Origin: Dehalococcoidia bacterium
Lineage (GTDB): Bacteria; Chloroflexota; Dehalococcoidia; Lucifugimonadales; GCA-2712585
Reading direction: 5' to 3'
NCBI GenBank assembly: GCA_965247585.1
Contig: CBDFHC010000004.1
Coordinates: forward strand, 66,554-130,553
DNA length: 64,000 nucleotides
This document shows, piece after piece, positions 28,859 to 54,131 of the stretch. The notes below the pieces were generated by a model. That model was not told where the DNA came from. It saw nothing but the letters and a program-made list of their open reading frames with translations, and did no database searches. Made by a program: the position numbers and the translations under genes. Every line of letters begins with the position of its first letter. Within the stretch, counting starts at the first letter, position 1.

Positions 28859-29305
28859 GCGCGGTATGGGCTCGTCCTTCCCTTCGACTAGCTCAGGATA
28901 AACTTGCCTCAGAACTTGTGAACCAATTGAGCTGGGACAGCGCTAGTGGGCGTCAGGATTGGACACGTAGAGAGGGTTGCGAATCACAGGTTGGTGGTGC
29001 CCACCCACGACCACCCAGTGAGGTTTAATTTCTGAGGGACACCCTCAGACTCCCGGCAGAAGGGCTGCGCCCCTCTGCACTCCTCCTAGTTGGGCGCAGA
29101 TAGACTAGAGACGGCGCTATTTACATTGGAATGACATGGCTTATGTGGAGGTTCAACGCGGGGAAATGAGACGCTGAAAAAGCCGACGAAGCCAAAAACT
29201 CACAGGGCCTCAGGATGAGCGGGTTGGTGGCGCAGAGGAGCGGGTATCGGACGGCGGTTCTCACGCCCTCTTAATCTCCCCCTATCGAGGGGGTGAGAAT
29301 TTTCG
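28859..29305 (+). repeat. Intergenic repeat cluster 15 (C-mid variant, G, A, B, C-right, C-mid fragment, D)
   Basis: Starts 17 nt after the stop codon. G 28917-28953, A 28975-29027, B 29028-29095, C-right-like 29110-29190, C-mid fragment 29205-29235, D hairpin 29262-29305. Confidence 0.9.
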
Positions 29306-36567: not shown

Positions 36568-37974
36568 TTAGTCCACGGGGGGGCGGCGGTAGCCGCCGAT
36601 GCGGTCTTCCAGGGCTTTGGCGGCGCGGAGGACGGTTAGCTCATCAAAGTGGCGGCCGACGAGCTGGACGCCGATGGGGAGGCCATCAGAGCTCATGCCG
36701 AAGGGCACCGACATGGCGGGGGAGCCGGTGAGGTCCCAGGGCATGGTGGCACGGAGGGCGTGTCGGCTGGGCATCTCTTGCCCCTCGATGGAGAAGCTCC
36801 GCTGCTCGTGGGGGTAGGCGGGCATGGGGACTGTGGGGCAGAGGAAGAGGTCATAGCGGGTGAACCATTCGGCGACACCTTGCTTTAGGGCGTCCCATTT
36901 CAGGTTGGCCTCAAGGTAGTCGTTGAAGTCTTGGGGCGGGCTTTCTACGTAGCGGGTGCGGAGGAGGTTAGTGAGGTCCGCCTCGCGGCCCTGGACGATA
37001 GGCAGCAGGGCCTGCTTGCCCTCGGTGAGGTAGGTGACGGAGGAGATGAAGCTGGAATCGTTCTCCAGCATGGCAGGAATTTCAGTCTGCTCCACACTGA
37101 GGCCGGCGTCTTTCAGCGCCTGGGCGGCCTGGGCGACGGCCTGCTGAACCTCTGGGTCGGTGGGCAGGCCCATGGTGGGACTCCAGCCGACCTTGAGGCC
37201 GGAAAGCGAGACGTCCAGGTCCATATAGTCGGGGACTGGGACGGGGGGAGCGAAGGTATCGAGGCCGTCAGGGCCGGCGGTGATGGAAAGCTCCAGGGCG
37301 ACGTCGGCGACGGTGCGGGCCATGGGGCCGACGTGGATGGCGCGGAGGATGGCCTGGGGGAGGATGTGGGTGTAGGGGACGCGTCCCAGGGTGGGCTTGA
37401 GGCCGGCGAGGCCGCAGAAGGAGGCGGGCTGCCGGATGGAGCCGCCCAGGTCAGTGCCGACGCCCAGGGGGGAGAGGCCGCAGGCGAGGGCGGAAGCCTC
37501 GCCGCCGCTTGAGCCGCCCGTGGTTCGAGCCGGGTCCCAGGGGTTGGGGGTGAGGCCCCAGAGGAGGTTATCGGTCTGCCACCAGAGGGCGAACTCAGGC
37601 ATGTTGGTCTTGCCCAGGAGTATGCCGCCAGCGTTCTTAAGGCGGGTGTAGAGGGTAGCGTCGACGTCGGAGACGTACTCGTCGAAGAGCCTGGAGCCCA
37701 GGGTGGTGCGCATACCGGCCACCTGTACGCAGTCCTTCAGCGTGTAGGGGACACCATGGAGAGGGCCGAGGTTGTCGCCGCGCATAAGGGCGGCCTCGGC
37801 TTCTTTCGCCTGTGACAAAGGGTCTTCGGCGAAGATGACGATAGCGTTGAGCCTGGCGTTCAGGGCGTCAATGCGGTCGAGATGGGCCTGGACGACTTCG
37901 ACAGGAGAGAGCTGTTTGGTTCGAATCTTTTGGGCCAGCTCAACGGCGGGGGTGTAGTGGATTTCCTGAGTCAT
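36568..37974 (-). CDS. Amidase (amidase-signature family), copy 5
   Basis: 468 aa. Motifs YTLKDCVQVAG, GGSSGGEASALACG, GTDLGGSIRQPA. SD aaaggag. Its start lies 16 nt downstream of the soxB-like stop, so it is probably the last gene of the amine-oxidation cluster. Confidence 0.9.
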   Translation of the reverse strand: MTQEIHYTPAVELAQKIRTKQLSPVEVVQAHLDRIDALNARLNAIVIFAEDPLSQAKEAEAALMRGDNLGPLHGVPYTLKDCVQVAGMRTTLGSRLFDEYVSDVDATLYTRLKNAGGILLGKTNMPEFALWWQTDNLLWGLTPNPWDPARTTGGSSGGEASALACGLSPLGVGTDLGGSIRQPASFCGLAGLKPTLGRVPYTHILPQAILRAIHVGPMARTVADVALELSITAGPDGLDTFAPPVPVPDYMDLDVSLSGLKVGWSPTMGLPTDPEVQQAVAQAAQALKDAGLSVEQTEIPAMLENDSSFISSVTYLTEGKQALLPIVQGREADLTNLLRTRYVESPPQDFNDYLEANLKWDALKQGVAEWFTRYDLFLCPTVPMPAYPHEQRSFSIEGQEMPSRHALRATMPWDLTGSPAMSVPFGMSSDGLPIGVQLVGRHFDELTVLRAAKALEDRIGGYRRPPVD

Positions 37975-37989
37975 GGTTGCTCCTTTGGG

Positions 37990-39207
37990 TTAGTGGAGGG
38001 CGGCGGAGGAAGCGGCGCCTTTTTCGTTGACGAGACGGGAGTCGTCGAAGCGGGTGATATCGAAGGGCTTGATGAGGTCAGGGGTCTTGCCGGTGTCTAT
38101 AAGCTCGGCCATGGACTTGCCGGCGATGGGGCCGGACTTGAAGCCGTAGGTGCCCCAGCCGCAATTGAGGAGAAAGCCATCAATGCCGGGGACGGGCCCC
38201 ATGATAGGGGCGTAGTCCGGGGTCATGTCACATAGGCCGGTCCAGTGTCGAAGGACGTTGACCTTAGAAAGGGAGGGGAACATCTTGAGGGCGTGGGAGA
38301 CGAGATCTTCCAGCCGAGGGTGGGTAGACCTGACATTGTAGGCGGGGTAGTGGTCCACCGCGCCGCCGACCACCAGCTCGCCGCGGTCTGTCTGGTAGAC
38401 GTAGACGTGGAGGTTGGTGGAGGAGACGCCGGTCTTCAAGAAGGGTTTGAGGGGCTCAGTGACGAACGCCTGGAGGGGGTGGGTGACGATGGGGAGCTGG
38501 ATGTCCAGCATGGCGGCGATGGTAGATGACCAGGCGGCGGTGCAGTTGAGGACGACGCCGGCCTGAACATCGCCGCGGCTGGTGTGGACGCCGGTGACGC
38601 GGCCGTTGCTTCGGAGAAAGCCGGTGACCTCGGTGTGGGGGTGCACCTGGGCGCCCATTGCGTCGACGGCGCGGGCATAGCCCCAGACCACGGCGTCGTG
38701 GCGGATGACGCCGGCGGGGGGGTGGTAGAGGGCGGCCAGCACCGGGAGGTCCTGGCCCTCCCGCATGTCCAGCGGGGGGGCCATACGCTTGATTTCATCG
38801 GGGCCGATAATTCGGCTATCCACACCCATGGCGCGGTTGAACTCGGCGCGGATTCGGGCGGCGTAGATGGCGGACTCGGTGTGTGCCAGCTCCAGTCTGC
38901 CGAACTGGCTGAAAAGGAGGTTGTAGTCCAGCTCCTGGGCCAGGTCTTCGTAGAGCTTAAGACTCTCGTAGAAGAAGGGGATGCCCTGAGGAGTGACGTA
39001 GGTGGCGCGGAGGATGGCAGTGGAGCGGGCACTGGCGCCGCCGCCCAGGTAGCCCTTGTCCAGGAGGGCGACGTTGGTGATGCCGCGCTTGGCGAGGTAG
39101 AAGGCGGTGGCGAGGCCGTGGACGCCAGCGCCGATTATGAGAACGTCATAGTGACCTTTCAGGTCGTGGTGGCGCCACATTTTCTCTTTTCTAAATAGGC
39201 GGAACAT
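37990..39207 (-). CDS. soxB: Sarcosine oxidase beta-subunit family FAD oxidoreductase (N-methylglutamate dehydrogenase MgdA-like)
   Basis: 405 aa. YDVLIIGAGVHGLATAFYLAKRGITNVALLDKGYLGGGASARSTAILRA matches the SoxB N-terminus. An alternative ATG lies 9 codons in. Confidence 0.85.
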   Translation of the reverse strand: MFRLFRKEKMWRHHDLKGHYDVLIIGAGVHGLATAFYLAKRGITNVALLDKGYLGGGASARSTAILRATYVTPQGIPFFYESLKLYEDLAQELDYNLLFSQFGRLELAHTESAIYAARIRAEFNRAMGVDSRIIGPDEIKRMAPPLDMREGQDLPVLAALYHPPAGVIRHDAVVWGYARAVDAMGAQVHPHTEVTGFLRSNGRVTGVHTSRGDVQAGVVLNCTAAWSSTIAAMLDIQLPIVTHPLQAFVTEPLKPFLKTGVSSTNLHVYVYQTDRGELVVGGAVDHYPAYNVRSTHPRLEDLVSHALKMFPSLSKVNVLRHWTGLCDMTPDYAPIMGPVPGIDGFLLNCGWGTYGFKSGPIAGKSMAELIDTGKTPDLIKPFDITRFDDSRLVNEKGAASSAALH

Positions 39208-39254
39208 GGGTTTATTGGGAGGGTCCTAACGGACCCTTTCGACCAATTCCTTCA

Positions 39255-39308
39255 AAATTCCGCCAAAGAGGGCTATGCCCTCTCCGGACTCTCCCGATTT
39301 GCTCAGAC
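39255..39308 (+). repeat. Intergenic repeat cluster 20 (degenerate B)
   Basis: ccgccaaagagggctatgccctctccggactctcccgatttgctcag. This is a hairpin-2 region related to the copy at 17097 and a tail related to 45531. It sits inside the operon, between the soxG-like and soxB-like genes. Confidence 0.7.
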
Positions 39309-39311
39309 AAT

Positions 39312-40031
39312 CTAGGTTCCATTTAGGTGGTTGATTGAATCCAGGCCGACGGGTCTGACGCCGTCCGGGGGGGCGGCGTGGAGGAGGGCATCCCAGAGGT
39401 ACTCGCCGAAGTCGCGGGTCACGTATAGCTGGAAGGCAGGGAGGCCGCCCAGGTCGTTGCGGAAGATGAGTAGATGGACCTCGGCGGCCTTGCATTGGGC
39501 GCAAGCGCCGTTTGGGAAGACGGACGGGTCAAGGTCCAGCTCCACTAGCCGGGAAAGGAAGCGATGGGAGCGAGGGCCGGCGACGAGCAAACCGGCCAAG
39601 GAGGAGGTCTGGTCCACCAGGTGGGCGCAACCGTCCAACTGTGGCTGGAGCGCTTCCGTGGCGGCATGCACCTGGGTGGGGGGAGTAAGGAGCAGGGCTT
39701 CGTCGTAGGAGAGGCCGAGGGCGGTGAGGCCGTCGATGGCGGCACCGTCGCCGGTGGGGAGGACGGCGGGCTGGGATGAGCCAACGCGCAGCGGCGCGGG
39801 GAGGCTTAGGGTTGAGGTGAGCAGGCCAAGAGCGTGGTCACCCTGGAGATCAAGCTTCCCGTAGTGGCTGATGTCACAGATGCCGCCGGAATGTTGGAGC
39901 ACTTCCAGGTCATCTTCCAGCGAGGCGTATGCGGAGGGGAGATGCCAGCCGTGGTGGTCAGCCAAGGTGGCGCCGGCGGCACGGTGGGCGTGATGCATGG
40001 CAGAGCGTTTAAGGGGTGGTGCTATGGGCAT
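39312..40031 (-). CDS. soxG: Sarcosine oxidase gamma-subunit / GcvT-like folate-binding protein (MgdD-like)
   Basis: PLKRSAMHHAHRAAGATLADHHGWHLPSAY matches the GcvT/SoxG N-terminal pattern (LKR.PL...H...GA.....GW..P..Y). I trimmed to the ATG at 40031 because the track ORF extension translates repeat C-mid. No SD is visible upstream. Confidence 0.75.
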   Translation of the reverse strand: MPIAPPLKRSAMHHAHRAAGATLADHHGWHLPSAYASLEDDLEVLQHSGGICDISHYGKLDLQGDHALGLLTSTLSLPAPLRVGSSQPAVLPTGDGAAIDGLTALGLSYDEALLLTPPTQVHAATEALQPQLDGCAHLVDQTSSLAGLLVAGPRSHRFLSRLVELDLDPSVFPNGACAQCKAAEVHLLIFRNDLGGLPAFQLYVTRDFGEYLWDALLHAAPPDGVRPVGLDSINHLNGT

Positions 40032-40040
40032 TTGTTGGCT

Positions 40041-40467
40041 CGCGGTATGGGTTCGTCCTTCGAGGGCCTCAGGATGAGCGGGTTGAAGCGGCGGTTGGGG
40101 AATAGGATTGCTCCAGATAATCGAGCGGGAGAGGGCAGGCTGGAGTGGAATGAACGACACGGGATGCCGGGGTGGGACTTGCTCTCCCCCCACACCCAGA
40201 TTCTTCGAACCTCACGGACGGACTCAGAATGACATACAAACTGTCTGGAGCGTGGATATGGTGACGCGGGAAGGGTTAAGGGAGCCGTAGGGGATTTTAT
40301 CGAGGCAATCGGCCATGGCGATGGGGATAGCCACGACGAAGGACTGCAAATCACAGGTTGGTGGTGCCCACCCACCCGCCCAGGGAGGTTTCTAAAAGTT
40401 TTTCTGAGGGACACCCTCAGACTCCCGGCAGCCACCACCCAGGTCCCCTGCACCCTCCTGTGCGGCG
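40041..40467 (+). repeat. Intergenic repeat cluster 21 (C-mid, C-left, A, B) inside the operon
   Basis: C-mid 40041-40092, beginning 10 nt upstream of the soxG-like ATG. C-left 40175-40240, A 40313-40392, B 40399-40467 (arm-less hairpin-2 variant). Confidence 0.9.
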
Positions 40468-40503
40468 GTATGGATTGGAAGGGGACGGGGGTAATCATTG
40501 GGT

Positions 40504-43428
40504 TCATTCGCGGAGACGCTTCCCTTCGGGGTCGTAGGCGGGAGCGTCGCGGACGGTGGCGGGAGCGGTGCGGCCGTTGACCTGGATTTGCAGGGTGGTG
40601 CCATCTTCGGCCATATCGGCTGGCACCCAGGCCAGGCCGAATCCTTTGCCCAGGGTGGAGCTGAAGCGGGAACTGGTGACTTTGCCGACGGGTAGGCCAT
40701 CTTTCATTATAGGAACGCCGTCGGCGGGGATTTCGCCGTTGTCCATGACGAAGCCTACCAGCTTGTCGCGCAGGCCGCGGTCCTGGACGGCCTTGAGGGC
40801 GCTGCGACCGATAAAGTCTTCCTTATCGAAGCGGACGGCCCAGGACATGTCGGCCTCGAGGGGGTTGGAGACGACGTCGGTGTCCTGGCCAGGGATGATG
40901 TGCTTCTTCTCGAGGCGGAGGACGCGCTGGGCCTCGACGCCGAAGGGCATGATGCCGAACTCGCCTCCGGCGTCCATGAGGGCGTCCCAGAGGTGTTCAC
41001 CGTATTCCGAGGGGACGTGAATCTCCCAGCCGGTCTCGCCGACGAAGCCGATGCGCATCAGGATGGCAGGGACGCCGGCAACCTCCCCCGATGCGCTGCT
41101 CATGTAGCGGAAGGCGTCGGTGGTGAGGTCGACATCTGTGAGCTTGCGGAGGGTGTCCCGGGCGTTGGGGCCGGCGACGTTGATGGCGGCGAACCCCGGG
41201 GTGAGGTTGGTGACGTGGACGCACTTGCCGGTGCCCGCGCTCCACCAGCGGAACCACTGCTCCACCAAGTCTATGTTGCCGGTGCCGGTGGTGACGTAGT
41301 AGCGGTCCTCGGCCAGACGAGTGACGGTGCCATCGTCCAGGATGACGCCGGCGTCTGAGCAGATCATTCCGTAGCGGACCCTACCGACGCGCAGGTTAGA
41401 GAAGTGGTGGGTGTAGACCCGGTCCATGAGCCAGGGGGCGTCCTGTCCCTGGACGTCCAGCTTCCCCAAGGTGCTGACGTCAATGATGCCGACGCGCTCC
41501 CTAACGGCGCGGATTTCGTCTTCGGGAGGGCCGTAGGAGTGGGGGCGTTTCCACTCGCCGATCTCCACCATTTTGGCGCCCATCTCGACGTGGCGGTGAT
41601 GGATTGCGGTGAAGCGGAAGGGGAGGTGACCAGGCCCGGCGATGACGCCCATGGGCACGGGCTGGGCCGGTGGCCGGGAGGTGGTGGCGCCGGTGTCCGC
41701 CATGGACCTGCCAGTATCCACGGCGCAGATGCCGGCGAAGGCCTTGAGGCACATTTTGCCCTGGCAAGGCCCCATGGAGGTGGTGCTGTAACGTTTGAGG
41801 GTCTGAACCTCGTCGAAACCCTCCTCGATGGCCCAGTGGAGGTCTTTTTCGGTGACGTCCTCACAGACGCAGACGAATTTTTTACCCTGGGACTCAGGGA
41901 CAACGAGGTTGTGGCCAGCGGACAGGTTGGTGCGGTAGCTCCGCACCTTGTCAGATAGCTCGGCTTGTAAGGTGGCAAGCTCCTCGGCGGCGTGGCCGTC
42001 AGGGCCGTTTGCCAGGACAGAAAGGGCTTGGAGAGCTGCCAGCTTCCCCTGGCTGATGGCGATGTCAACGTTATGTATGCCGGTGACCTCTCCGGCGGCG
42101 TAAAGGCCGTCCTCCAAGAGGTGCGGAACGGACTCCCCAAGAAGGTCGTCATAGGCGAGGCGAGAGTCGCCCTGGGCGATGAGGGCGGTGGCGGGGTCGA
42201 AGCCGGCAGCGACGGCGATGAAATCGCAGCGGACGGTGGTCTGATCGCCAGTGAGCGCGCCGTCGTCGAGGCGAGCCAGAAGCGCCGCCGAAACACGCTT
42301 GACGCCGCGAGGCCGCCGGATGGTGTAGGGGGCGAGAACATCAACGCCGCGGGCGCGAAGGTCGTCTCGAAGCTGGGAGGGAACGTCGGGCGAACGGGAG
42401 TCGGCGACGGCGGAGACGGTGACACCGGCGTCGAGTAGCTCCAGGGCGGTTGCGAGACCCTGGTCATTGTTGGTGACGACGACGCCACGGCGACCGGGGG
42501 AGACGCCGTAGAGGTTGACCAACCTGAGGGCGGCGGAGCTGAGGATGATGCCCGGTATGTCGTTGTTGGGGAAGACCAACGGGACTTCCTGTGTGCCGGT
42601 GGCGACGACCAGGCTCTTGAAGCGGAGCTTGACCATCTCGGCGCCGCAGTTGACGCCCAGCAAGTTGCCTTCATAGAGGCCGTAGGCGGAGGCGTTGGAA
42701 AGGAGGGTGAGGTTGGGGAGGTCTTGCAACTGTTGGGCCAAGCGTCGGGCGATTTTATATCCCGGTTCGCCGCCGTGGTCACCAGCATCGGTGACGGGGC
42801 GGGTTAGGGCGAGGAGGTGACCGCCGATGGACGGCTGGTCGTCTATGAGGACGACGCGGAGGCCGCCGGTGGCGGCCTGGAGGGCGGCGGCGCAGCCGGC
42901 GGGGCCGCCGCCGACGACTGCTACGTCAGTGAAGAGGTTCCGGTTCTGGTACCCGGTCTCGTCCCGGGTGTCTGGACCAACTTTGCCGAGGCCGGCGAGA
43001 CGGCGGATGACGGGCTCGGCCAGGCGCCAGAGGAATTTAGGCTTGATGAGGGTCTTGTAGTAGAAGCCAACGGGGAGGAAGCGGTCCATGCGGTCGAGGA
43101 ACGAAAGGGCATCATGCTCCGGGGATGGCCAGGCGTTCTGGTGGTGAACCAGGGCGCCCTGTTCGGCGGTACGGGTACAGGTCCGGACGTTGGGCGTACC
43201 GTCCACGTTCATGAGGCAGTTGGGACATCGACCGGTGCAGCAGAGCGGCCCGCGGGGGCGGTGGTACTTGAAGCTTCGGCTGAGGATGTCTATACCGGAG
43301 GCGTACAGGGCGGAGGCGATGGTGTCGCCATGGAAGGCGGAAACAGACTTGCGGTTGTAGGAGAAGGTGACGACCTGGGAGCGGTCAATAGCCTGGGAAG
43401 GATGAGGGGGCAGCCGGTAGCCTGTCAT
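40504..43428 (-). CDS. soxA: Sarcosine oxidase alpha-subunit family protein (MgdC-like)
   Basis: 974 aa. N-terminal Cys cluster (CCTGRCPNCLMNVDGTPNVRTC), a central FAD/NAD Rossmann region (VAVVGGGPAGCAAAL) and a C-terminal GcvT-like aminomethyltransferase domain. Confidence 0.9.
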   Translation of the reverse strand: MTGYRLPPHPSQAIDRSQVVTFSYNRKSVSAFHGDTIASALYASGIDILSRSFKYHRPRGPLCCTGRCPNCLMNVDGTPNVRTCTRTAEQGALVHHQNAWPSPEHDALSFLDRMDRFLPVGFYYKTLIKPKFLWRLAEPVIRRLAGLGKVGPDTRDETGYQNRNLFTDVAVVGGGPAGCAAALQAATGGLRVVLIDDQPSIGGHLLALTRPVTDAGDHGGEPGYKIARRLAQQLQDLPNLTLLSNASAYGLYEGNLLGVNCGAEMVKLRFKSLVVATGTQEVPLVFPNNDIPGIILSSAALRLVNLYGVSPGRRGVVVTNNDQGLATALELLDAGVTVSAVADSRSPDVPSQLRDDLRARGVDVLAPYTIRRPRGVKRVSAALLARLDDGALTGDQTTVRCDFIAVAAGFDPATALIAQGDSRLAYDDLLGESVPHLLEDGLYAAGEVTGIHNVDIAISQGKLAALQALSVLANGPDGHAAEELATLQAELSDKVRSYRTNLSAGHNLVVPESQGKKFVCVCEDVTEKDLHWAIEEGFDEVQTLKRYSTTSMGPCQGKMCLKAFAGICAVDTGRSMADTGATTSRPPAQPVPMGVIAGPGHLPFRFTAIHHRHVEMGAKMVEIGEWKRPHSYGPPEDEIRAVRERVGIIDVSTLGKLDVQGQDAPWLMDRVYTHHFSNLRVGRVRYGMICSDAGVILDDGTVTRLAEDRYYVTTGTGNIDLVEQWFRWWSAGTGKCVHVTNLTPGFAAINVAGPNARDTLRKLTDVDLTTDAFRYMSSASGEVAGVPAILMRIGFVGETGWEIHVPSEYGEHLWDALMDAGGEFGIMPFGVEAQRVLRLEKKHIIPGQDTDVVSNPLEADMSWAVRFDKEDFIGRSALKAVQDRGLRDKLVGFVMDNGEIPADGVPIMKDGLPVGKVTSSRFSSTLGKGFGLAWVPADMAEDGTTLQIQVNGRTAPATVRDAPAYDPEGKRLRE

Positions 43429-43435
43429 TGTGCGG

Positions 43436-43699
43436 TCAGGCGTCCAGGCCCTGAGGCCAGAAGGTGCGGTCTATGCGGTTGGTGACGGAGTCTCGGTCCG
43501 CCATGAGCCAGCGGCGGCAGCCGTACTTGTGGTACCACCACTCGCACTGGACCGCAGCTTGGTTGGCGCGGTAGTAGAAGTATTTGGTCCAAGTATCCTC
43601 GGGAGCGTCAGGGGCAGGGCGGGTCTGGACCTCGCCGCCGAAGGTGAAGTCATAGGCGCTGCGTTCGCCGCAGTTGGGACAGGTGAGCAAGAAGGCCAG
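43436..43699 (-). CDS. soxD: Sarcosine oxidase delta-subunit family protein (MgdB-like)
   Basis: LLTCPNCGERSAYDFTFGGE matches the SoxD zinc-ribbon N-terminus (CP.CG.R...EF.Y.G). I propose a CTG start at 43699, 6 nt after SD aggaga. The track ORF (to 43780) would overlap the upstream gene's 3' end by 64 nt. The start codon is uncertain. Confidence 0.7.
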   Translation of the reverse strand: MAFLLTCPNCGERSAYDFTFGGEVQTRPAPDAPEDTWTKYFYYRANQAAVQCEWWYHKYGCRRWLMADRDSVTNRIDRTFWPQGLDA

Positions 43700-43716
43700 G
43701 GGTTGTCTCCTGTGCC

Positions 43717-45075
43717 CTAAAAGAGGGTGAGGTAGCGGTCGATTTCCCAGGTGGAGACCTGGCGATGGTAGTCGCGCCACTCCTGCTCTTTCAAGGCGGC
43801 AAACTCGTCGTAGATGGGACCTAGGGCGCTCTGCACCACGGGGTCACCGCGCAGCTCCTGAAGCGACTCTTGGAGGCTCTGAGGGAGGAGCCGAATGCCG
43901 CGGCGCTGGATTTCGTCCAAGTCCAGGGCGTAGAGATTGCCCAGATTGGCCGCTCCGGGGTCCAGCTTGCGCTGAACGCCGTCCAGCCCGGCGGTGAGGT
44001 AGGCGGCGAAGGCGAGATAGGGGTTGCAGCCAGCGGAGATGGTGCGGTCTTCCAGGTGGCCGGGGCCGGCGGTACGGATCATCTGGGTGCGGTTGTTGTC
44101 GCCATAAGAGATGAAGGCTGGGGTCCAGAGGAAGCCGGAGCGAGAGCCCATGAGGGCAGGACCCACCTGGAGGCGTTTGTAGCAGTTTACAGTTGGGGAG
44201 TTGACGGCGCAGAGGGCAGGAGCGTGGTCCAGGATGCCGCCGATGAAGTGGTAGGCGGTCTGGGAAAGGCCCAAGCCCTGGGGATCGTTGTCGTCCAGGA
44301 ATAGGTTGTCGCCGGTTTCAGCGTCGGCGACGTGGAAGTGGATGTGGCCGGCGCTGCCGGTGCGGTTGGCGAAGGGCTTGGGCATGTGGGTGGCGATGGC
44401 GCCGAATTTTCGCGCCACCTGGCTAGTCATCATTTTAAAGAAGGTGTAACGATCGGCGGTGACCAGGGCGTCAGCGTAGTGGAAATTGATCTCATACTGG
44501 CCATTGGCGTCCTCATGGTCCGACTGGTATACGCCCCAGCCCAGGCCATTAAGACCGTCCATCATCTCCCGGAGATAACCCATGACGCCGGAGATGCCTT
44601 TAAAGTCATAGCAGGGTTTTTCCAGGGAGTCGGTATCGGCGGGGTCCCAGACGGAGATACCGCCGTTGCCGTCCCGGGTGACGAGAAAATGCTCTGGCTC
44701 AATGCCTACGTTGAAGACGAAGCCCCGGGCACGCGCATCAGAAAGGACGCGCTTCAAGTTCTGGCGGGGGCAGTAGGGGTGTGGAGCGTCGTCCACGAAG
44801 AGGTCGCTGGCGAAGCGGGCCACCTGGGGGTCCCAGGGAAGAGGGGTGTAGGTGTTTAGGTCGACGCGGGCCACCATGTCATGGGAGTGGGGCCCCTGGC
44901 CCATGCCGTGGAGCGCGCCGCCGGCGAAACCGGCGCCGGAATCAATAACGTCATCGAAGTGGGCGACGGGAACGAGCTTGACCTTGGGTGCGCCGTGGAT
45001 ATCGACGAACTGGGTGAGGAGGTATTCGACGCCGTCGTCATTCATCTGACGTCGGAGTTCTTCTCTGGTGGGCAT
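43717..45075 (-). CDS. Glutamine synthetase family protein, gamma-glutamylmethylamide synthetase (GmaS)-like
   Basis: 452 aa with a GS catalytic-domain pattern. It sits between the NMG-synthase-like genes and the sarcosine-oxidase-like genes, as in known N-methylglutamate pathway clusters. Confidence 0.75.
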   Translation of the reverse strand: MPTREELRRQMNDDGVEYLLTQFVDIHGAPKVKLVPVAHFDDVIDSGAGFAGGALHGMGQGPHSHDMVARVDLNTYTPLPWDPQVARFASDLFVDDAPHPYCPRQNLKRVLSDARARGFVFNVGIEPEHFLVTRDGNGGISVWDPADTDSLEKPCYDFKGISGVMGYLREMMDGLNGLGWGVYQSDHEDANGQYEINFHYADALVTADRYTFFKMMTSQVARKFGAIATHMPKPFANRTGSAGHIHFHVADAETGDNLFLDDNDPQGLGLSQTAYHFIGGILDHAPALCAVNSPTVNCYKRLQVGPALMGSRSGFLWTPAFISYGDNNRTQMIRTAGPGHLEDRTISAGCNPYLAFAAYLTAGLDGVQRKLDPGAANLGNLYALDLDEIQRRGIRLLPQSLQESLQELRGDPVVQSALGPIYDEFAALKEQEWRDYHRQVSTWEIDRYLTLF

Positions 45076-45136
45076 GGTAGTTAGGGTCCCTCCCTTCTGC
45101 CTAGGCTGAGGTTTGTTGATGAACCTTGGAGGTGAG

Positions 45137-45545
45137 CAAGGTGCTCTCGCACCTTATCGACCATCCCCCTAACCCTCTTCCTGTCCAGGAAGGGGGAAGA
45201 AAAACGAATTCTCTGAGGGACACCCTCAGACTCCCGGCAGGGAACCCAGGTTCCCTGCACCCTTCTAGATTATCAACGGGGTCAAGTTACTTTAGAATTG
45301 TCGCACTCTTAATCCTAGGTTTCGGCAAGGTGCTATCGCACCTTATCGACCATCCCCCTGACCCTCTTCCCGGCAGGGAACCCCTCTCTTAATCCTAGGT
45401 TTCGGCAAGGTGCTATCGCACCTTATCGACCATCCCCCTGACCCTCTTCCTGTCCAGGAAGGGGGAAGAAAAACGAATTCTCTGAGGGACACCCTCAGAC
45501 TCCCAGCAGAAGGGCTCTGCCCCTCTGCACTCTCCGATTTGCTGC
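45137..45545 (+). repeat. Intergenic repeat cluster 22 (E, E2, B, tandem E x2, E2, B) inside the operon
   Basis: E copies at 45137-45181, 45327-45370 and 45407-45450. A near-perfect 80-bp tandem unit sits at 45306-45370 and 45386-45450. B 45208-45272 (cagggaaccc class) and B 45476-45545 (cagaagggc class). Confidence 0.9.
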
Positions 45546-45688
45546 TCCACAGTACCTGAATAGTGCAATTCTCGAGGGGATTGGTCATGGTGCAGGGTAT
45601 CGGAGGCACAGAGGACCGAAGACTTTCAAAGGGCTTATGCGGTTGATCATTGCTATCAATACAACAATAGTTACGGAGCGAAGCGAGG

Positions 45689-46993
45689 CTAGTCCCAGCC
45701 GAAGACTTTTTCGGTGCCGACGAGGGGAACGCGGGCCATGGCAGAGGCTTCCAGGGTGAGGGCAGCCAAGTCCTCGGGCTCCAGGCTGTGGACGTCGCTC
45801 TTGCCGAGGGAGCGGGTGATGAGGGCCAACTCCATGGTCATGGAGTTTAGGAAGTTGGCGACGCGCTGGGCACCTTCGTCCGGGTCCAGCCGTTTCTCAA
45901 GCTCCGGGTCCTGGGTGGTGATACCCACGGGGCACATGCCGGTCTGGCAGTGGTGGCAGGAACCGGCCTTGACGCCGACTTCCTTCTCATAGTCGGCCTC
46001 TGGGATGTCACGGTTGCAGTTGAGGGCGATGAGGGCGGCGATACCGATGGCTACAGCGTCGGCGCCCAAGGCGAGGGCTTTAGCGACGTCGGCGCCGCTA
46101 CGGATGCCACCGGAGGCGATTAGGGTGACTTGGCCGCTGAGGCCAATCTCCCGGAGGGCCTGGCGGGCGAGGACGATGGCGGGAACGGTAGGGATGCCGC
46201 TGTGGTCCAGGAGCACTTCGGCGGAAGCGCCGGTGCCGGCGAGCATGCTATCGATGACGATGGCGTCGGCGCCGGCCTTGGCGGCGAGCTTGACGTCGTC
46301 CTTGACGCGGCATGCGCCCAGCTTGATTTGGATGGGGACGCGCCAATCAGTGGCCTCACGGAGCTGCTCGATCTTCATACCAAGGTCATCGGGGCCAAGC
46401 CAGTCGGGGTGGCGGGTGGGGCTGCGCTGGTCGATGCCGGAGGGCAGGTCGCGCATTTCAGCGATATGGTCGAGGACCTTGACGCCCATGAGCAGACCGC
46501 CGGTGCCGGGCTTGGCGCCCTGGCCAACGCAGATCTCTATGGCGTCAGCAGTGGCGAGGTGGTGTGGGTTGAGGCCGTAGCGGCTGGGGAGCACCTGGTA
46601 GATGAGCTTTTTGGAAGCCTCGCGCTCGGCCGGGAGCATTCCGCCGTCGCCGGTGCAGGTGGCGGTGCCGGCCATGGTGGCGGCCTTGCCCAGGGCCACC
46701 TTGGCGTTGCGAGAGAGGGCGCCGTAGCTCATGCCGGTTATATAAATGGGGGTGTCAATCTCCAAGGGCTGCTCGGCGTAGCGGTGGCCGATGACGGTGG
46801 CGGTGCTGCACTTTTCCTTGTAGCCTTCCAAGGGAAAGCGAGTGAGTCCGGTAGATAGGAAGGTAAGGTCATCAAAGTGGGTGACCTTCTGGAAGGTGCT
46901 GAGGCCGCGGATGCGGTAGCGGCCCAGGTCCGCTTTGGCATGGATGTCTTCGATGGTCCAGGGAGACCATATTTGGCTGCTGCCGGTCACCAT
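45689..46993 (-). CDS. FMN-binding glutamate-synthase-family protein (GltB domain-2 like; NMG synthase MgsC-like)
   Basis: Starts MVTGSSQIWSPWTIEDI. TIM-barrel FMN/Fe-S region (GDGGMLP, GQGAKPGTGG, ASGGIRSG, CHHCQTGMCPVGITTQ). I trimmed to the ATG at 46993 with SD ggagg; the track ORF extends to 47275. Confidence 0.85.
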   Translation of the reverse strand: MVTGSSQIWSPWTIEDIHAKADLGRYRIRGLSTFQKVTHFDDLTFLSTGLTRFPLEGYKEKCSTATVIGHRYAEQPLEIDTPIYITGMSYGALSRNAKVALGKAATMAGTATCTGDGGMLPAEREASKKLIYQVLPSRYGLNPHHLATADAIEICVGQGAKPGTGGLLMGVKVLDHIAEMRDLPSGIDQRSPTRHPDWLGPDDLGMKIEQLREATDWRVPIQIKLGACRVKDDVKLAAKAGADAIVIDSMLAGTGASAEVLLDHSGIPTVPAIVLARQALREIGLSGQVTLIASGGIRSGADVAKALALGADAVAIGIAALIALNCNRDIPEADYEKEVGVKAGSCHHCQTGMCPVGITTQDPELEKRLDPDEGAQRVANFLNSMTMELALITRSLGKSDVHSLEPEDLAALTLEASAMARVPLVGTEKVFGWD

Positions 46994-47039
46994 GCGTCGA
47001 CGCCTCCGGGGAAGTGGTTGTCTAAGATGGAATAGGCCA

Positions 47040-47723
47040 CTAGATGACTCTCTTTTCGTGGCGCTCCAGGGAGTCGAAGTGATAGAGACGTTTTGCGGAT
47101 ACGATCTTCTTGAAGGACTTCCTTTCGGTGACGCCGTGGCGGTCGAGGGCGCTCCAAACGCAGAGAAGGTCGTCTTCGGTGGGGACCTCCAACTTGGCGT
47201 CGCTGCCGAGGGAGCCGATTTCGCCAGCGACGTAGATGACGCCCTCGTACATGGAGTCGCCGACGCCTTCGCCAACGTCGCCGCAGACGATTATGGTGCC
47301 TTTCTGCATCATGAAGCCGGTGACGAAGCCAGCGTTACCCTGGATGATGAGGGTGCCGCCTTTCATGGAGATACCGGCGCGAGCGCCGGCGTTGCCGCCG
47401 ACGAAGACCTCACCGCCGCGGATGGTGGAGGCAACAGAAGCGCCGGCGCTGCCGGAGAGGGAGATCTTGCCGCTCATGAGGTTGTCGCCGAGGGCCCAGC
47501 CGGCGTTGCCGTGGATTTTGACGTCGCAGCCGTCCATAAGGCTGGCGCAGAAATAGCCGACGCTGCCCTCAAAGGTGATTTTAGATGGGTTCAGGATTCC
47601 GACGGCCAGGTTGTGGCGAGCCTGGGGGTTGAGCACCCGAATCTCTTCGTCCTTTTGTGCCAGCTCCTTGATACGGGTGTTGACCTGGCGAGTGGTGAGG
47701 GAGGAGGCGTCTAGATCGCCCAA
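47040..47723 (-). CDS. GXGXG-motif protein (glutamate synthase C-terminal-domain like; MgsB-like)
   Basis: 227 aa with repeated GxxG beta-helix motifs (GNAGWALGDNL, GSAGASVAS, GGNAGARAG, GNAGFVTG, GDVGEGVG). The TTG start overlaps the upstream gene's end. Confidence 0.85.
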   Translation of the reverse strand: MGDLDASSLTTRQVNTRIKELAQKDEEIRVLNPQARHNLAVGILNPSKITFEGSVGYFCASLMDGCDVKIHGNAGWALGDNLMSGKISLSGSAGASVASTIRGGEVFVGGNAGARAGISMKGGTLIIQGNAGFVTGFMMQKGTIIVCGDVGEGVGDSMYEGVIYVAGEIGSLGSDAKLEVPTEDDLLCVWSALDRHGVTERKSFKKIVSAKRLYHFDSLERHEKRVI

Positions 47724-48625
47724 GTCATGACCTTTGACTCCTGGGGATCGGTCCGTTCAATCTCGTCCGGGAAGATGCTGCGGAGGGCGACTTCCTCCGA
47801 GGCGAGGGCGATAACGTCATCGGTCTCCATGAGCACCAGGGGCTTGGCGGCCCACCGGTCCTTGGCGACGCCGAGGCCGTCTTTGGTGGAGACGAGGTAG
47901 GTGAAGGTGCCGTCCAGGTCTTTCTGGGAGTCTCCCAGGGACTCTTGGAGGGAGGCGCCACGGGACAGGCGGTCGGCCAGGTAAACGGCGATGAGCTCGG
48001 AGTCGTTTCCGGTCTGGAAGCGGTGACCCATGTCCATGTAGTCGCGCTTCATACGGTGGTAGTTGGTGAGCTGGCCGTTGTGGACGACGGTTATGTCAGG
48101 GAAGGGATAGGCCCAGAAGGGGTGGGCGTGGGTAATGTCAACGCGGCTCTCGGTGGCCATGCGTACGTGACCGATCCCGTGGGTGCCGGTCATGGCGGAG
48201 ACGTGGTGCCTGCGCTCCAAGGCGGCGCCGGTGCCCACGTCTTTGACGACTTCGGAGCAGTGGCCGATGCTGTGGAGCTCGACGCCGTCGATGTCCATGA
48301 GGTGCTGGGCCAGTTCCCGAGTCTCGCCCTCGAAGTTGATGGCGAGGCGGAGGTACTCGTCCACGGCGCTACGGTGGGCAATGACACCGCCGCGGGCAGC
48401 GACCAGCTCATCCACGCGTCGGAAGCGGTCCTGATAGTCGCCGGAGGGATCAGACCAGATGCGAACGATGAGGTCAGCGTTGACGGCTTCGCCACAGACG
48501 GTGACGCCGGTGGAGTCCATGCCTCTGTGGGCCATGGCGTCCATCATTTTAACAAGCTGCGCGCCGACGGGCGCCAGGTGACCCGCGCCGGACTTTTTAT
48601 AGAGGATTCCGCCGATACCGCACAT
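47711..48625 (-). CDS. Class-II glutamine amidotransferase (GltB domain-1 like; MgsA-like)
   Basis: Starts MCGIGG, giving the N-terminal nucleophile Cys directly after Met. I trimmed the track ORF (to 48679) to this ATG, which follows SD ggag. Confidence 0.85.
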   Translation of the reverse strand: MCGIGGILYKKSGAGHLAPVGAQLVKMMDAMAHRGMDSTGVTVCGEAVNADLIVRIWSDPSGDYQDRFRRVDELVAARGGVIAHRSAVDEYLRLAINFEGETRELAQHLMDIDGVELHSIGHCSEVVKDVGTGAALERRHHVSAMTGTHGIGHVRMATESRVDITHAHPFWAYPFPDITVVHNGQLTNYHRMKRDYMDMGHRFQTGNDSELIAVYLADRLSRGASLQESLGDSQKDLDGTFTYLVSTKDGLGVAKDRWAAKPLVLMETDDVIALASEEVALRSIFPDEIERTDPQESKVMTWAI

Positions 48626-53009: not shown

Positions 53010-54131
53010 ATGAACGGTGAGACGGCGGAGGTAGTTATTGTTGGGGGAGGGATTGTGGGGGTGAGCACGGCGTACCTGCTGGGGAAGGCGGGGGTGAAGG
53101 GCGTGGTGGTGGAGCGGGACTCGATTGGGAGCCATGCTTCGGGGTTTGCGTATGGGGGGATTGGGGGTAGCGGGGTGCCGGAGCCGATGGCCCCGATTGG
53201 CCGGGAGGGGTGGAAGCTGCATAACGAGTTCGCCAAGACGCTGCCGGAATCCACGGGGATAAATTTTGATTTCCGGTACAGGTCCTCTATGTACTTGGCG
53301 TTTAACCAAGCGGAGGTTGACGGGCTAAAGGCGTCGCTGCCGTGGCGGCTAGGGGAGCCGGGAGCCAAGATTCGGTGGCTCAGCGGCGATGAGGCGCGGA
53401 AATTGGAGCCACGGGTTTCGCCGGAGGCCATTGGGGCGCTGGTGGACGAGTTGCAGGCAGACCTGGAACCGTACCGGCTTAGCCTGGCATTGACGCAAGA
53501 GGCGGAGAAGCTGGGGGCCACGGTGCGGCACGGAAACGTGAAGGGTCTGAAGAGGCAAGGCCGGAAGGTGACGGCGGTGGTGCTGGAAAGCGGGGAGATA
53601 GCGTGCGACCGGGTGGTGCTGGCGATGGGGCCGTGGAGCGCGGAGGCGTCGGAGTGGCTGGGGGTGCCGATCGAGATTAGGCCGCTGAAGGGTCAGATAC
53701 TGCGGCTACAGGCGCCGGGTGCGCCGGTGCAGTGCTCGGTTGGATGGTCGGGGAATTACGCGATCACCAAACCGGACGGGCTGCTGTGGGCGGGCACCAC
53801 GGAGGAGGAAGTGGGGTTTGACGAGAACCCCAGCAGCGAGGCGCGGGACAATATCATGGCGTCGGTGATCAAGACGATGCCGTTCATGATAGACGCTCGG
53901 CTGGCGCAGCATACGGCGTGTCTGCGTCCGCTGGCGTCGGACGGCGTGCTAGTGCTTGGAGAGGCGCCGGGATGGGAGGGTGTTTACGTGGGAACAGGAG
54001 CGGGGCGGCAGGGCATCCGGTTGGGGCCCGGTATGGCGCGGGTGATTGTGGACTTGATTACAAAAGGGAGCACCGATCTGCCGATTAAGGCGTTTGACCC
54101 AGGGCGGTTTGCGACGTCCCCAATTGGCTAG
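53010..54131 (+). CDS. FAD-dependent oxidoreductase (DAO family), copy 3
   Basis: 373 aa with the N-terminal motif VVIVGGGIVGVSTAYLLGKAG. SD ggaggt. Confidence 0.8.
   Translation: MNGETAEVVIVGGGIVGVSTAYLLGKAGVKGVVVERDSIGSHASGFAYGGIGGSGVPEPMAPIGREGWKLHNEFAKTLPESTGINFDFRYRSSMYLAFNQAEVDGLKASLPWRLGEPGAKIRWLSGDEARKLEPRVSPEAIGALVDELQADLEPYRLSLALTQEAEKLGATVRHGNVKGLKRQGRKVTAVVLESGEIACDRVVLAMGPWSAEASEWLGVPIEIRPLKGQILRLQAPGAPVQCSVGWSGNYAITKPDGLLWAGTTEEEVGFDENPSSEARDNIMASVIKTMPFMIDARLAQHTACLRPLASDGVLVLGEAPGWEGVYVGTGAGRQGIRLGPGMARVIVDLITKGSTDLPIKAFDPGRFATSPIG

Follow-up and report, generated by a model that had tools for sequence, protein, structure and literature searches.

A probable N-methylglutamate pathway cluster with rearranged gene order and a linked amidase in a SAR202-type Dehalococcoidia bacterium

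What is metabolized by the products of a nine-gene block in a marine SAR202-type Dehalococcoidia bacterium, and does the amidase gene at its end belong with the others? The window (i.e. the whole stretch of DNA that was analysed) is 64,000 nucleotides in length. Between 36568 and 48625 its minus strand carries nine intact genes, all of them uninterrupted open reading frames, in the sequence mgsA, mgsB, mgsC, gmaS, delta, alpha, gamma, beta and amidase. The initial annotation had placed the same nine genes here, and Pfam domains could be assigned to every one. It had also described the block as a complete N-methylglutamate (NMG)-type cluster, and this is borne out by the gene content, the domains and the presence of a GmaS-type ligase. 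The genes and the two large spacers within the block are as follows.

47711-48625, minus strand: mgsA, ATG start; Pfam GATase_6 (63 bits) and GATase_7 (55 bits)
47040-47723, minus strand: mgsB, TTG start; Pfam GXGXG (74 bits)
45689-46993, minus strand: mgsC; Pfam Glu_synthase (332 bits)
45076-45688, minus strand: 613-nt spacer between mgsC and gmaS, with dispersed repeats
43717-45075, minus strand: gmaS; Pfam Gln-synt_C (300 bits)
43436-43690, minus strand: delta (SoxD/MgdB-like), 84 aa, TTG start; Pfam SoxD (83 bits)
40504-43428, minus strand: alpha (SoxA/MgdC-like), 974 aa; Fer2_4, Pyr_redox_2, SO_alpha_A3/Fer2_BFD, GCV_T and GCV_T_C
40032-40503, minus strand: 472-nt spacer between alpha and gamma, with four dispersed-repeat modules
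39312-40031, minus strand: gamma (SoxG/MgdD-like), 239 aa; Pfam GCV_T (108 bits) and TIGR01375 soxG (46.9 bits)
37990-39207, minus strand: beta (SoxB/MgdA-like); Pfam DAO (259 bits) and TIGR01373 (418 bits)
36568-37974, minus strand: amidase-signature (AS) amidase, 468 aa; PF01425 (362.5 bits)

We consider it about 70% probable that the block, including those parts of the scheme that are inferred, encodes the oxidation of methylamine, or of a small primary amine resembling it, via gamma-glutamylmethylamide and N-methylglutamate. The assignment to the NMG pathway, as judged from the genes, is strong. In the proposed scheme GmaS would join the amine to glutamate in an ATP-dependent reaction, and MgsABC would convert the product into N-methylglutamate. 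This would be oxidized on the flavins of beta within the delta-alpha-gamma-beta enzyme, with tetrahydrofolate, bound by the GCV_T domain of alpha, taking up the one-carbon unit, so that glutamate would be regenerated and the nitrogen released as ammonia. The amidase would hydrolyse an amide to a product that either feeds into the pathway or departs from it.

The glutamine synthetase (GS)-like protein scores 549.9 bits against the NCBIfam model TIGR03105 (cutoff 469.6), compared with 300.8 bits against the GlnA model TIGR00653 (cutoff 429.15) and 222.9 bits against a PuuA-type model (cutoff 650). Among solved proteins it is closest to a glutamate--methylamine ligase (PDB 9qur, 452 bits), and it matches RhGmaS (PDB 7cql) with 332 bits compared with about 240 bits for GS. 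The residues K33, Y156, Y183, Q184, D186, E188, E195, N197, Y200, R329 and R334 are kept, with D186, E195 and R329 as the catalytic Asp, Glu and Arg, and every catalytic and methylamine-pocket residue of RhGmaS named in PMC7948447 is retained. The residues that handle ammonium in GS, Asp50′ and the glutamate of the Glu-flap, are replaced by A51 and W317 respectively; both are likewise replaced in the crystallized RhGmaS (PMC7948447). The initial annotation had proposed a GmaS subject to inspection of the ammonium-binding residues. With both of these replaced (Ala51, Trp317) and the TIGR03105 cutoff passed, the sequence indicates that the protein is GmaS and not GlnA. GlnA (type I glutamine synthetase) was itself tried and rejected, on the score below the TIGR00653 cutoff and the lack of Asp50′ and the Glu-flap glutamate. 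We note that the gmaS product is labelled a type III glutamate--ammonia ligase in public records.

The mgsA product is a class-II (Ntn) glutamine-amidotransferase-like protein that begins MCGIGG, the ATG start placing the cysteine at residue 2, and orthologues of 57-70% identity occupy the same position in relatives. mgsB encodes the GXGXG subunit of NMG synthase and overlaps mgsA by 13 nt; a comparable short overlap of these genes is found in relatives. mgsC encodes the FMN-binding glutamate-synthase-like subunit, which is 80-87% identical across 80 loci. All three subunits of an NMG synthase are found, i.e. an Ntn amidotransferase with Cys1, a GXGXG protein and an FMN-binding Glu_synthase domain.

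The alpha subunit has the domain order Fer2_4, NAD/FAD Rossmann, BFD-like motif and folate-binding GCV_T plus GCV_T_C, and its GCV_T folate-dependent aminomethyltransferase domain is complete (259 bits). It contains two four-cysteine motifs, C63-x4-C68-x2-C71-x12-C84 in Fer2_4 (95 bits) and C520-x-C522...C555-x4-C560 in Fer2_BFD. All eight cysteines are invariant in 71 of 71 members of the lineage, and among the 150 nearest cluster representatives at 50% identity, 27 have the full set. They are missing from the TSOX alpha (2gag_A) and from the five proteobacterial alphas compared. The presence of eight cysteines in two [2Fe-2S]-type motifs suggests an Fe-S dehydrogenase, and we have moderate confidence that the delta-alpha-gamma-beta enzyme is of this kind and would use an electron acceptor other than O2. 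These motifs had not been recorded in the initial annotation.

Beta is by homology the FAD/FMN catalytic subunit, with 343 bits to TSOX beta, and its His170 aligns with His173 of 2gag_B, which we take to be the carrier of covalent FMN in TSOX beta. The TTG start of delta lies 26 nt past gmaS, with a ribosome-binding site AGGAGA, and Cys4, Cys7, His54 and Cys58 make up a zinc-site (Cys3His) pattern; the zinc-site cysteines are lacking in three aligned proteobacterial NMG-linked delta subunits. Gamma has a truncated GcvT-type fold and is merely 28-50% identical among relatives, in agreement with the reported divergence of mgdD (PMC5023235). All four subunits miss the NCBIfam sarcosine-oxidase cutoffs (TIGR01372, 01373, 01374 and 01375): alpha scores 796.7 (cutoff 1164), beta 418.1 (529.45), delta 76.5 (116.5) and gamma 46.9 (143.95). 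On these scores the enzyme is divergent, and could therefore prefer another N-methyl amino acid.

The beta match to TSOX with its retained His173 equivalent, and the Cys3His pattern of delta, would also suit a true heterotetrameric sarcosine oxidase of choline, betaine or creatine breakdown, with the neighbouring glnT-glxBCD genes serving nitrogen assimilation. Papers on SAR202 label these genes sarcosine oxidase in a context of choline degradation (PMC5395668, PMC6306507), and an M24/Creatinase_N gene lies between gamma and beta in eight close relatives. However, that M24 protein resembles the ectoine hydrolase DoeA (130 bits), none of the solved proteins that match it at E <= 1e-20 is a creatinase, and there are no choline, betaine or creatine genes within the 64-kb window. 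The tetramer genes are moreover joined to mgsABC-gmaS in essentially every sampled locus, the GS-like protein has the methylamine pocket rather than the ammonium pocket, and the four subunits fall below the cutoffs of the sarcosine-oxidase family. We regard a sarcosine oxidase as improbable.

The choice of amine is a related matter, as the cluster could handle ethylamine or another short alkylamine, with the dehydrogenase oxidizing the matching N-alkylglutamate. Ethylamine is a substrate of GmaS enzymes, which serve in theanine synthesis (PMC7677707), and the dehydrogenase subunits are divergent, bear Fe-S motifs and are unlike the characterized enzymes. Against this, conservation of the methylamine pocket is complete, and the full GCV_T domain of alpha is suited to a one-carbon unit rather than a longer alkyl group, so we think an amine of this kind unlikely.

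Among 80 Dehalococcoidia/Chloroflexota loci, in which GmaS is 73-78% identical, the full eight-gene order mgsABC-gmaS-delta-alpha-gamma-beta is found on one strand in 69. Since the same order recurs so often in related loci, chance cannot plausibly account for the gene set. None of the 80 has beta first or departs in any other way from delta-alpha-gamma-beta. Five proteobacterial records all have beta-delta-alpha-gamma, and beta leads in Methylocella, Methyloversatilis and Pseudomonas C5pp (PMC8292978, PMC5023235). It had been pointed out that beta is placed last rather than first. That is correct, but the order is not unusual for the lineage, being fixed in every related Dehalococcoidia/SAR202-type locus sampled. 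The delta-alpha-gamma-beta order of the window differs from the beta-delta-alpha-gamma of mgdABCD; gene order is customary for the NMG pathway and not functionally defining. The remaining flanking genes of the window are not conserved beside the cluster in relatives, which sets the limits of the conserved unit at mgsA on one side and the amidase on the other. The NMG pathway itself is known, and the cluster is a lineage-wide variant of it, distinguished by its rearranged order, an Fe-S-type alpha subunit and a co-inherited amidase.

The two big gaps inside the cluster, which do not appear in the initial annotation, are packed with a dispersed repeat that occurs throughout the window. The mgsC/gmaS spacer contains two 105-nt repeat copies (45136-45240 and 45405-45509), each including the hairpin TCTGAGGG-TGT-CCCTCAGA and, after it, a T-rich tail, together with three 75-nt repeat copies. 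Its terminator-like hairpins lie at 45499-45481 and 45230-45212. The predicted RNA fold of this spacer is more stable than those of shuffled sequences (z = -5.2), while that of the alpha/gamma spacer is not (z = 0.24). An Rfam search of the mgsC/gmaS spacer gave no match, and no remnant was found in it of the ADP-ribosylglycohydrolase gene that is present at this position in relatives. Because terminator-like hairpins sit in both of the large repeat-filled spacers, the nine-gene block may not be a single transcript.

The amidase is predicted to be cytoplasmic and carries the Lys / cis-Ser / Ser triad of the AS family; nearly all of the 54 homologues in the alignment (53-54, depending on the residue) retain Lys80, Ser155 and Ser179. 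It reaches none of the NCBIfam equivalog cutoffs (the best is NF004815, 369 against 506), and on this basis the GatA, AtzE, allophanate hydrolase and indoleacetamide hydrolase subfamilies were rejected; the best solved relative is GatA (216 bits). It directly follows beta as first described, although the gap is 15 nt and not 16. Of the 70 complete loci, 41 have an orthologue beside the cluster; it is found directly after beta in 38 loci (at 223 nt or less in 28) and upstream of mgsA in 5. A class-I amidotransferase-like gene occupies the slot after beta in 10 loci, and neither gene is present in 19 of the 70 complete loci. Relatives of the amidase in metagenomes again adjoin NMG genes, in four arrangements. 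Across the related loci and the metagenomes the linkage takes several forms, with the amidase behind beta, ahead of mgsA or gmaS, or divergent from mgsA. About half of the metagenome relatives with sufficient flanking sequence lack NMG genes in the vicinity, and thus the amidase is neither obligatory for the pathway nor exclusive to it.

With five AS amidases in the 64-kb window the genome is crowded with such paralogues, and the gene might be an unrelated neighbour of beta. The complete loci without either gene point in this direction, as do several metagenome relatives of 46-55% identity that lack NMG genes up to 7 kb away. Tight spacing, on which the link to the cluster had first been argued, is weak evidence for a role in a window so rich in AS amidases, but the link itself holds on other grounds. 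The cluster-linked orthologues form a single clade, apart from the three other window amidases taken into the tree, and the tree of this clade mirrors that of the cluster. The linkage also recurs in different arrangements in metagenomes, the other flanking genes show no such conservation next to the cluster, and the short gap to beta suggests a shared transcript. An unrelated neighbour is unlikely on this evidence; the amidase is probably more than a chance neighbour of the cluster, and we infer that it is co-transcribed with beta.

The likeliest role for the amidase, put forward weakly, is the release of methylamine or another alkylamine from an N-substituted amide. An N-alkyl amide, as first proposed, fits the amidase family and might be the substrate, but the sequence evidence does not itself favour it over the substrates of a gamma-glutamyl-amide hydrolase, a role that we consider less likely. 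Such a hydrolase, acting inside or after the pathway, would cleave gamma-glutamylmethylamide, or other gamma-glutamyl-alkylamides that a promiscuous GmaS might produce, to glutamate and the amine. Ten relatives have a PF00117 class-I amidotransferase-like gene exactly in the amidase slot, and its protein has a cysteine in a GVCLGAQ motif that resembles a class-I nucleophile elbow. Gamma-glutamyl amides are the substrates of class-I-fold hydrolases in the Puu (PuuD) and Ipu (IpuF) pathways and in theanine hydrolysis, and a gamma-glutamyltranspeptidase gene is present in the window at 54157-55881. By contrast, cleavage of gamma-glutamylmethylamide would reverse the ATP-dependent step of GmaS, and to our knowledge the canonical NMG pathway requires no gamma-glutamyl-amide hydrolase. 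The PF00117 protein falls short of every curated cutoff (119.6, where 250 is required), and its solved relatives are all uncharacterized. We view this function as possible but doubtful.

The cluster can be compared with known systems. The gltB1B2B3-gmaS-soxBDAG cluster of Methylocella silvestris, as summarized in PMC8292978, likewise encodes all eight functions on a single strand and shares the leading part, from mgsABC through gmaS to the dehydrogenase block. Beta is first in that block and last in the window, and the cluster as given in the summary has no amidase, whereas the window cluster has one. GmaS of alphaproteobacterial plasmid records is about 38-40% identical to that of the window.

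The clusters of Pseudomonas sp. C5pp and of Acinetobacter and Pseudomonas plasmids are arranged as gmaS-mgsABC-amt and purU-folD-mgdABCD, and have the enzyme set of the window. The plasmid alphas of Acinetobacter and Pseudomonas are the closest plasmid homologues of the window alpha (38-42% identity), but they lack all eight cysteines, and their delta subunits lack the zinc-site cysteines. Their dehydrogenase order is beta-delta-alpha-gamma, folD/purU and an Amt transporter lie alongside, and the Acinetobacter cluster has an XRE regulator next to glnT as well; in the window no folD, purU, Amt-type transporter or regulator adjoins the cluster, a point against the pathway assignment. In Pseudomonas sp. 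C5pp a carbaryl (N-methyl carbamate) hydrolase releases methylamine that is consumed by the NMG route (PMC8292978), which sets a precedent for a hydrolase supplying methylamine to it. That hydrolase lies outside the cluster.

TSOX of Corynebacterium and Stenotrophomonas (PDB 1x31, 2gag) shares with the window enzyme the four subunits, the beta histidine, the Cys3His pattern of delta and the folate-binding domain of alpha. In a flavin-only oxidase alpha is expected to lack Fe-S ligands, and TSOX alpha has no cysteine at any of the positions where the window alpha has eight. The window context is one of methylamine assimilation genes and not of sarcosine or creatine genes. HcnABC (HCN synthase), opine oxidases, D-hydroxyproline dehydrogenase and archaeal PDH1 are Fe-S flavoprotein dehydrogenases that combine DAO, Fer2_4 and BFD modules. 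The window enzyme shares with the HcnABC type a DAO catalytic subunit, the Fer2_4 four-cysteine motif and a BFD-like CxC...CQGxxC motif. It differs in that both Fe-S modules are fused to Rossmann and GCV_T domains within a single alpha chain, and in having SoxD- and SoxG-like partner subunits. Finally, the Puu (putrescine) and Ipu (isopropylamine) systems resemble the window in combining a GS-like ligase and an amide hydrolase in one cluster; their hydrolases have the class-I amidotransferase fold and act on gamma-glutamyl products.

The nine genes of the cluster run head to tail on the minus strand over 36568-48625, with uninterrupted open reading frames.

Genes of the cluster in coding order, each identified with Pfam and NCBIfam
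47711-48625, minus strand, class-II amidotransferase with protein start MCGIGG (mgsA)
47040-47723, minus strand, GXGXG protein (mgsB)
45689-46993, minus strand, FMN glutamate-synthase-like protein (mgsC)
43717-45075, minus strand, glutamine synthetase (GS)-family protein (gmaS)
43436-43690, minus strand, SoxD-like protein (delta)
40504-43428, minus strand, SoxA-like protein (alpha)
39312-40031, minus strand, GcvT/SoxG-like protein (gamma)
37990-39207, minus strand, SoxB-like protein (beta)
36568-37974, minus strand, amidase-signature (AS) amidase

ORF calls, Pfam and NCBIfam bear out the nine-gene description of the initial annotation, except that the beta and amidase genes are separated by 15 nt and not by 16. 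From mgsA to the amidase the spacers are -13, 46, 613, 26, 7, 472, 104 and 15 nt; the two long internal ones (613 and 472 nt) were absent from that description. Being 15 nt apart, beta and the amidase are most likely co-transcribed, while the block as a whole could be either one transcript or three to four. The GS-like protein shares 84% identity with one from 'SAR202 cluster bacterium AD-804-J14', and we treat the window as part of a probable SAR202-type Dehalococcoidia genome. A scan of one genome per GTDB species returned 469 relatives of this protein; the best 80, which were used here, have 72-78% identity and all come from Dehalococcoidia/Chloroflexota MAGs of the ocean, at least one of them from a sponge.

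The GS-like protein passes the TIGR03105 model (549.9, cutoff 469.6), the 'type III' family that names proteobacterial gmaS genes glnT in the annotated records examined, and fails those for GlnA (300.8, cutoff 429) and gamma-glutamylputrescine synthetase (222.9, cutoff 650). Among solved structures it scores highest against a glutamate--methylamine ligase (9qur, 452 bits) and Rhodovulum GmaS (7cql, 332 bits), with glutamine synthetases at ~240 bits. The key residues of Rhodovulum GmaS (RhGmaS) have been established by structure and mutagenesis (PMC7948447). Lys30′, Tyr147, Tyr174, Gln175, Asp177 and Glu179 are conserved as K33, Y156, Y183, Q184, D186 and E188 in the window, and Glu186, Asn188, Tyr191, Arg312 and Arg317 as E195, N197, Y200, R329 and R334. 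Ala51 occupies the position of GS Asp50′ and Trp317 that of the Glu-flap Glu, both exactly as in RhGmaS. Thus family scores, solved relatives and GmaS-type residues all set the protein apart from GlnA, the grouping that the initial annotation had held against its own proposal, and the ammonium-site residues Asp50′ and Glu-flap Glu are replaced. On sequence grounds the protein is GmaS. The substrate might be an alkylamine other than methylamine, but conservation of the methylamine pocket and the C1-specificity of the folate domain speak against this.

The alpha subunit has a feature overlooked in the initial annotation, namely eight cysteines in two [2Fe-2S]-type patterns. The first (C63-x4-C68-x2-C71-x12-C84) lies within a Fer2_4 match of 95 bits, and the second (C520-x-C522 ... 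C555-QGKM-C560) within the BFD / SO_alpha_A3 region. Each of the eight is present in every lineage member compared (71 of 71). By contrast, none is present in the alpha subunit of crystallised heterotetrameric sarcosine oxidase (TSOX; 2gag_A), nor in the alphas of three N-methylglutamate (NMG)-linked proteobacterial clusters and two further Sox-like clusters. Some proteobacterial alphas are annotated '2Fe-2S iron-sulfur cluster-binding protein', but they were rejected as Fe-S type since the cysteine ligands are absent. Among more distant alphas (the 150 best representatives of 50%-identity clusters, from ~15 billion proteins), all eight cysteines occur in 27, including 16 of the top 20; the second four are found in 8 N-terminally truncated representatives and none of the eight in 107, and a few representatives are intermediate. 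The window delta keeps a Cys3His pattern that three aligned proteobacterial NMG-linked deltas lack. Beta retains a histidine aligning with His173 of TSOX beta, the residue that carries covalent FMN in the TSOX structures. We infer that the enzyme of this lineage is probably an Fe-S flavoprotein dehydrogenase from which the C1 unit leaves by a folate-dependent route.

In the SAR202 papers found, these genes carry no annotation other than sarcosine oxidase, as part of choline breakdown (PMC5395668, PMC6306507). That the tetramer is a sarcosine oxidase is disfavoured by the universal fusion of its genes to mgsABC-gmaS, by family scores below cutoff, and by the DoeA-like nature of an M24 gene inserted in relatives.

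The initial annotation drew attention to the tightly following amidase. Spacing alone is weak evidence here: the window holds five AS amidases in 64 kb, which is unusually many, and is rich in other amide and amine enzymes, so that adjacency by itself means little. The linkage does hold across relatives. In 38 of 80 loci beta is followed by an orthologue with 51-68% identity, in 28 of them at a distance of no more than 223 nt, and 5 more loci have one upstream of mgsA; in a neighbour-joining tree the cluster amidases form one clade, with three other window amidases outside it. When locus states were placed on a tree of concatenated GmaS, MgsC, SoxA and SoxB from 70 complete loci, the amidase was downstream in 36 and upstream in 5, a class-I amidotransferase-like gene occupied the same site in 10, and 19 had neither; the branching of the amidase tree follows that of the cluster tree. 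When metagenome contigs were scanned reciprocally with the window amidase, 26 relatives came up. Five of them adjoin NMG genes, in four arrangements: the amidase follows beta, precedes gmaS (two loci), is divergent from mgsA or lies upstream of mgsA. About as many have adequate flanks and no NMG genes. The polysaccharide deacetylase, TPP enzyme, epimerase and DinB genes that flank the cluster are not conserved beside it in relatives. The genomic comparisons thus indicate that the association of amidase and cluster is real but neither obligatory nor exclusive.

The amidase triad (Lys80, Ser155, Ser179) is intact; against curated subfamilies and solved structures only generic matches were found, the best being GatA at 216 bits. 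Two roles fit the data. The amidase may free an amine from an N-substituted amide and so feed the pathway, just as carbaryl hydrolase supplies methylamine in Pseudomonas C5pp (PMC8292978). Alternatively it may be a gamma-glutamyl-amide hydrolase, as suggested by its non-homologous amidotransferase-like replacement in ten relatives. This replacement is a class-I glutamine-amidotransferase-like gene (PF00117, 254 aa) directly after beta, at 16505-17269 in L076 (L-numbers designate related Dehalococcoidia/Chloroflexota loci) and, as one clade, in L003, L014, L030, L037, L040, L051, L056, L057 and L060. Its product has a cysteine within a GVCLGAQ motif resembling the class-I nucleophile elbow, and the gene is a putative non-homologous amide hydrolase at the amidase position. 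In 30 relatives the run of hydrolases is extended by a 557-aa Amidohydro_3 protein, present once or twice downstream of the amidase (L015:18876-20549 and 29 other loci), which is not found in the window. By eye it resembles D-aminoacylase / N-acyl-D-amino-acid deacylase; curated models give no confirmation of this.

Amide and amine catabolic paralogues crowd the window (6254-7738 (+), 20006-21544 (-), 23715-25226 (-), 25448-26881 (-) and 36568-37974 (-); also 10030-11184, 18023-19186, 53010-54131, 11305-14098 and 54157-55881). Besides the five AS amidases there are three further DAO-family oxidoreductases and two class-III aminotransferases, together with an M20 peptidase, a DUF1028 protein, a phosphotriesterase-family protein, two amidohydrolases, a gamma-glutamyltranspeptidase, a luciferase-like monooxygenase and a xanthine-dehydrogenase-like protein. 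Pfam identified no transporter among the window ORFs scanned. Upstream of thiG (992-1783) and a thiE-like gene (320-991) there is a TPP riboswitch (1836-1951, minus strand), which at 57.7 bits exceeds the gathering score.

The 613- and 472-nt spacers consist of a dispersed repeat present throughout the window. On the transcribed strand it presents the hairpin TCTGAGGG-TGT-CCCTCAGA; a T-rich tail comes after this hairpin in three places, two within the first spacer and one beyond the amidase. Exact copies of the hairpin core were looked for in 110 loci, and none was found. The first spacer folds far better than its shuffles (z = -5.2) and the second no better. No riboswitch or other known RNA was matched by Rfam at E <= 1 in the cluster and its spacers. 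The composite repeat occurs in nearly every intergenic spacer of the window (e.g. 2012-2037, 8314-8339, 14257-14282, 29033-29058, 40405-40430, 45214-45239, 45483-45508 and 62584-62609). Its hairpin module TGAGGGACACCCTCAGACTCCCGGCA is present in 25 copies, a 42-nt module in 6, and AGGTTGGTGGTNCCCACC matches 19 sites, 18 of them on the plus strand; for each, 0 are expected by chance. The modules lie on the plus strand whatever strand the flanking genes use. The GC skew, (G-C)/(G+C), of the plus strand is +0.20 across the whole window (1-64000) and arises mostly at third codon positions (coding-strand values of -0.53 for ten minus-strand and +0.45 for nine plus-strand genes). In most related loci the absolute skew is ~0.02; the trait is shared by L010, L019 and L033 (+0.19), L048 (+0.14) and L044 (-0.14). 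The strict orientation and extreme skew suggest that spread of the repeat may be tied to replication or single-stranded DNA, in a REP/RAYT-like or IS200/IS605-like manner.

In 21 relatives (e.g. L052:8991-9917) an ADP-ribosylglycohydrolase gene (PF03747, 264 bits; DraG/Tri1-like) lies between mgsC and gmaS, which hints that ADP-ribosylation might control the GS-like ligase or the pathway. The gene is not in the window, where repeats fill this spacer. The gmaS-delta, gamma-beta and mgsB-mgsC spacers of relatives are insertion hot spots (e.g. L073:15422-15823, L074, L026, L027). They have received PD-(D/E)XK 'GxxExxY' proteins at ~20 loci (PDDEXK_3 by Pfam) and, as judged by eye from translations, a putative MazF/PemK-like toxin, an Mrr-like nuclease, a putative DNA methyltransferase/restriction enzyme and a transposase. 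The eight-gene order is retained throughout despite these insertions. The window spacers hold no remnants of the relatives' ADP-ribosylglycohydrolase, PDDEXK_3, amidotransferase-like or Amidohydro_3 genes. Eight relatives (L010:15453-16646, and L004, L011, L019, L020, L023, L033 and L034) carry an M24/Creatinase_N protein between gamma and beta. This protein most resembles ectoine hydrolase DoeA (207 bits and below cutoff in NCBIfam, 130 bits to PDB 6twj), with no creatinase among its solved relatives, and its gene is not in the window; a creatine/sarcosine reading based on it was rejected.

Conservation of the pathway across 80 Dehalococcoidia/Chloroflexota genomes makes SAR202 a candidate methylamine oxidiser. 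SAR202-type bacteria rank with the most numerous cells in the dark ocean and in sponge microbiomes, and methylated amines are climate-relevant marine nitrogen and carbon compounds. We consider it unlikely, with a probability of about 0.15, that these bacteria run a distinct methylamine pathway in its full form. In this, N-substituted amides in dissolved organic nitrogen would be cleaved by a dedicated cytoplasmic amidase to release methylamine or short alkylamines, and the Fe-S-containing N-methylglutamate dehydrogenase would then deliver electrons to the respiratory chain rather than to oxygen. If true, amide nitrogen and methylated amines would have a sink that has so far gone unrecognised, and gmaS primers based on proteobacterial sequences would probably fail to detect it; gmaS serves as a marker for methylated-amine consumers (PMC7948447). 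The literature searched did not link SAR202 or Chloroflexota with gmaS or the N-methylglutamate pathway, nor were the exact phrases 'heterotetrameric sarcosine oxidase' and '2Fe-2S' found together in it. The co-inherited amidase offers a testable handle on how the many amidases of the lineage are tied to central C1 and nitrogen metabolism.

The pathway is already known, and its individual genes are named in public annotation; what is new, as judged from comparative genomics, is the fixed alternative gene order, the Fe-S-type dehydrogenase and the co-inherited amidase. In a Rhizobium sp. CCGE532 plasmid record (L114:25-2859) a beta-delta-alpha-gamma Sox-like operon with folD and purU is immediately preceded by genes for an M24 peptidase and an AS amidase, which loosely parallels the pairing of hydrolase and tetramer; this AS amidase was rejected as kin of the cluster amidase, being ~36% identical and no closer to it than to the other window paralogues. 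Beta is first in Methylocella (gltB123-gmaS-soxBDAG), M. universalis (mgdABCD) and Pseudomonas C5pp (purU-folD-mgdABCD) (PMC8292978, PMC5023235, PMC3160333). The order is beta-delta-alpha-gamma in 5 of 5 records from Ponticoccus, Acinetobacter, Pseudomonas, Ruegeria and Rhizobium, whereas that of the window is delta-alpha-gamma-beta. When 80 Dehalococcoidia loci were searched by tblastn with the nine window proteins, 69 had mgsA-mgsB-mgsC-gmaS-delta-alpha-gamma-beta on a single strand, the others being interrupted or ended by contig ends, and none had beta first. The subunit order that the initial annotation called unusual is therefore real and unlike that of the characterised systems, yet it is the norm of the lineage and not peculiar to this locus. 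In design the predicted Fe-S dehydrogenase would be kin to HcnABC, opine oxidase and D-hydroxyproline dehydrogenase. For enzymologists its alpha subunit may provide a link between Fe-S amino-acid dehydrogenases and the flavin-only sarcosine oxidases.
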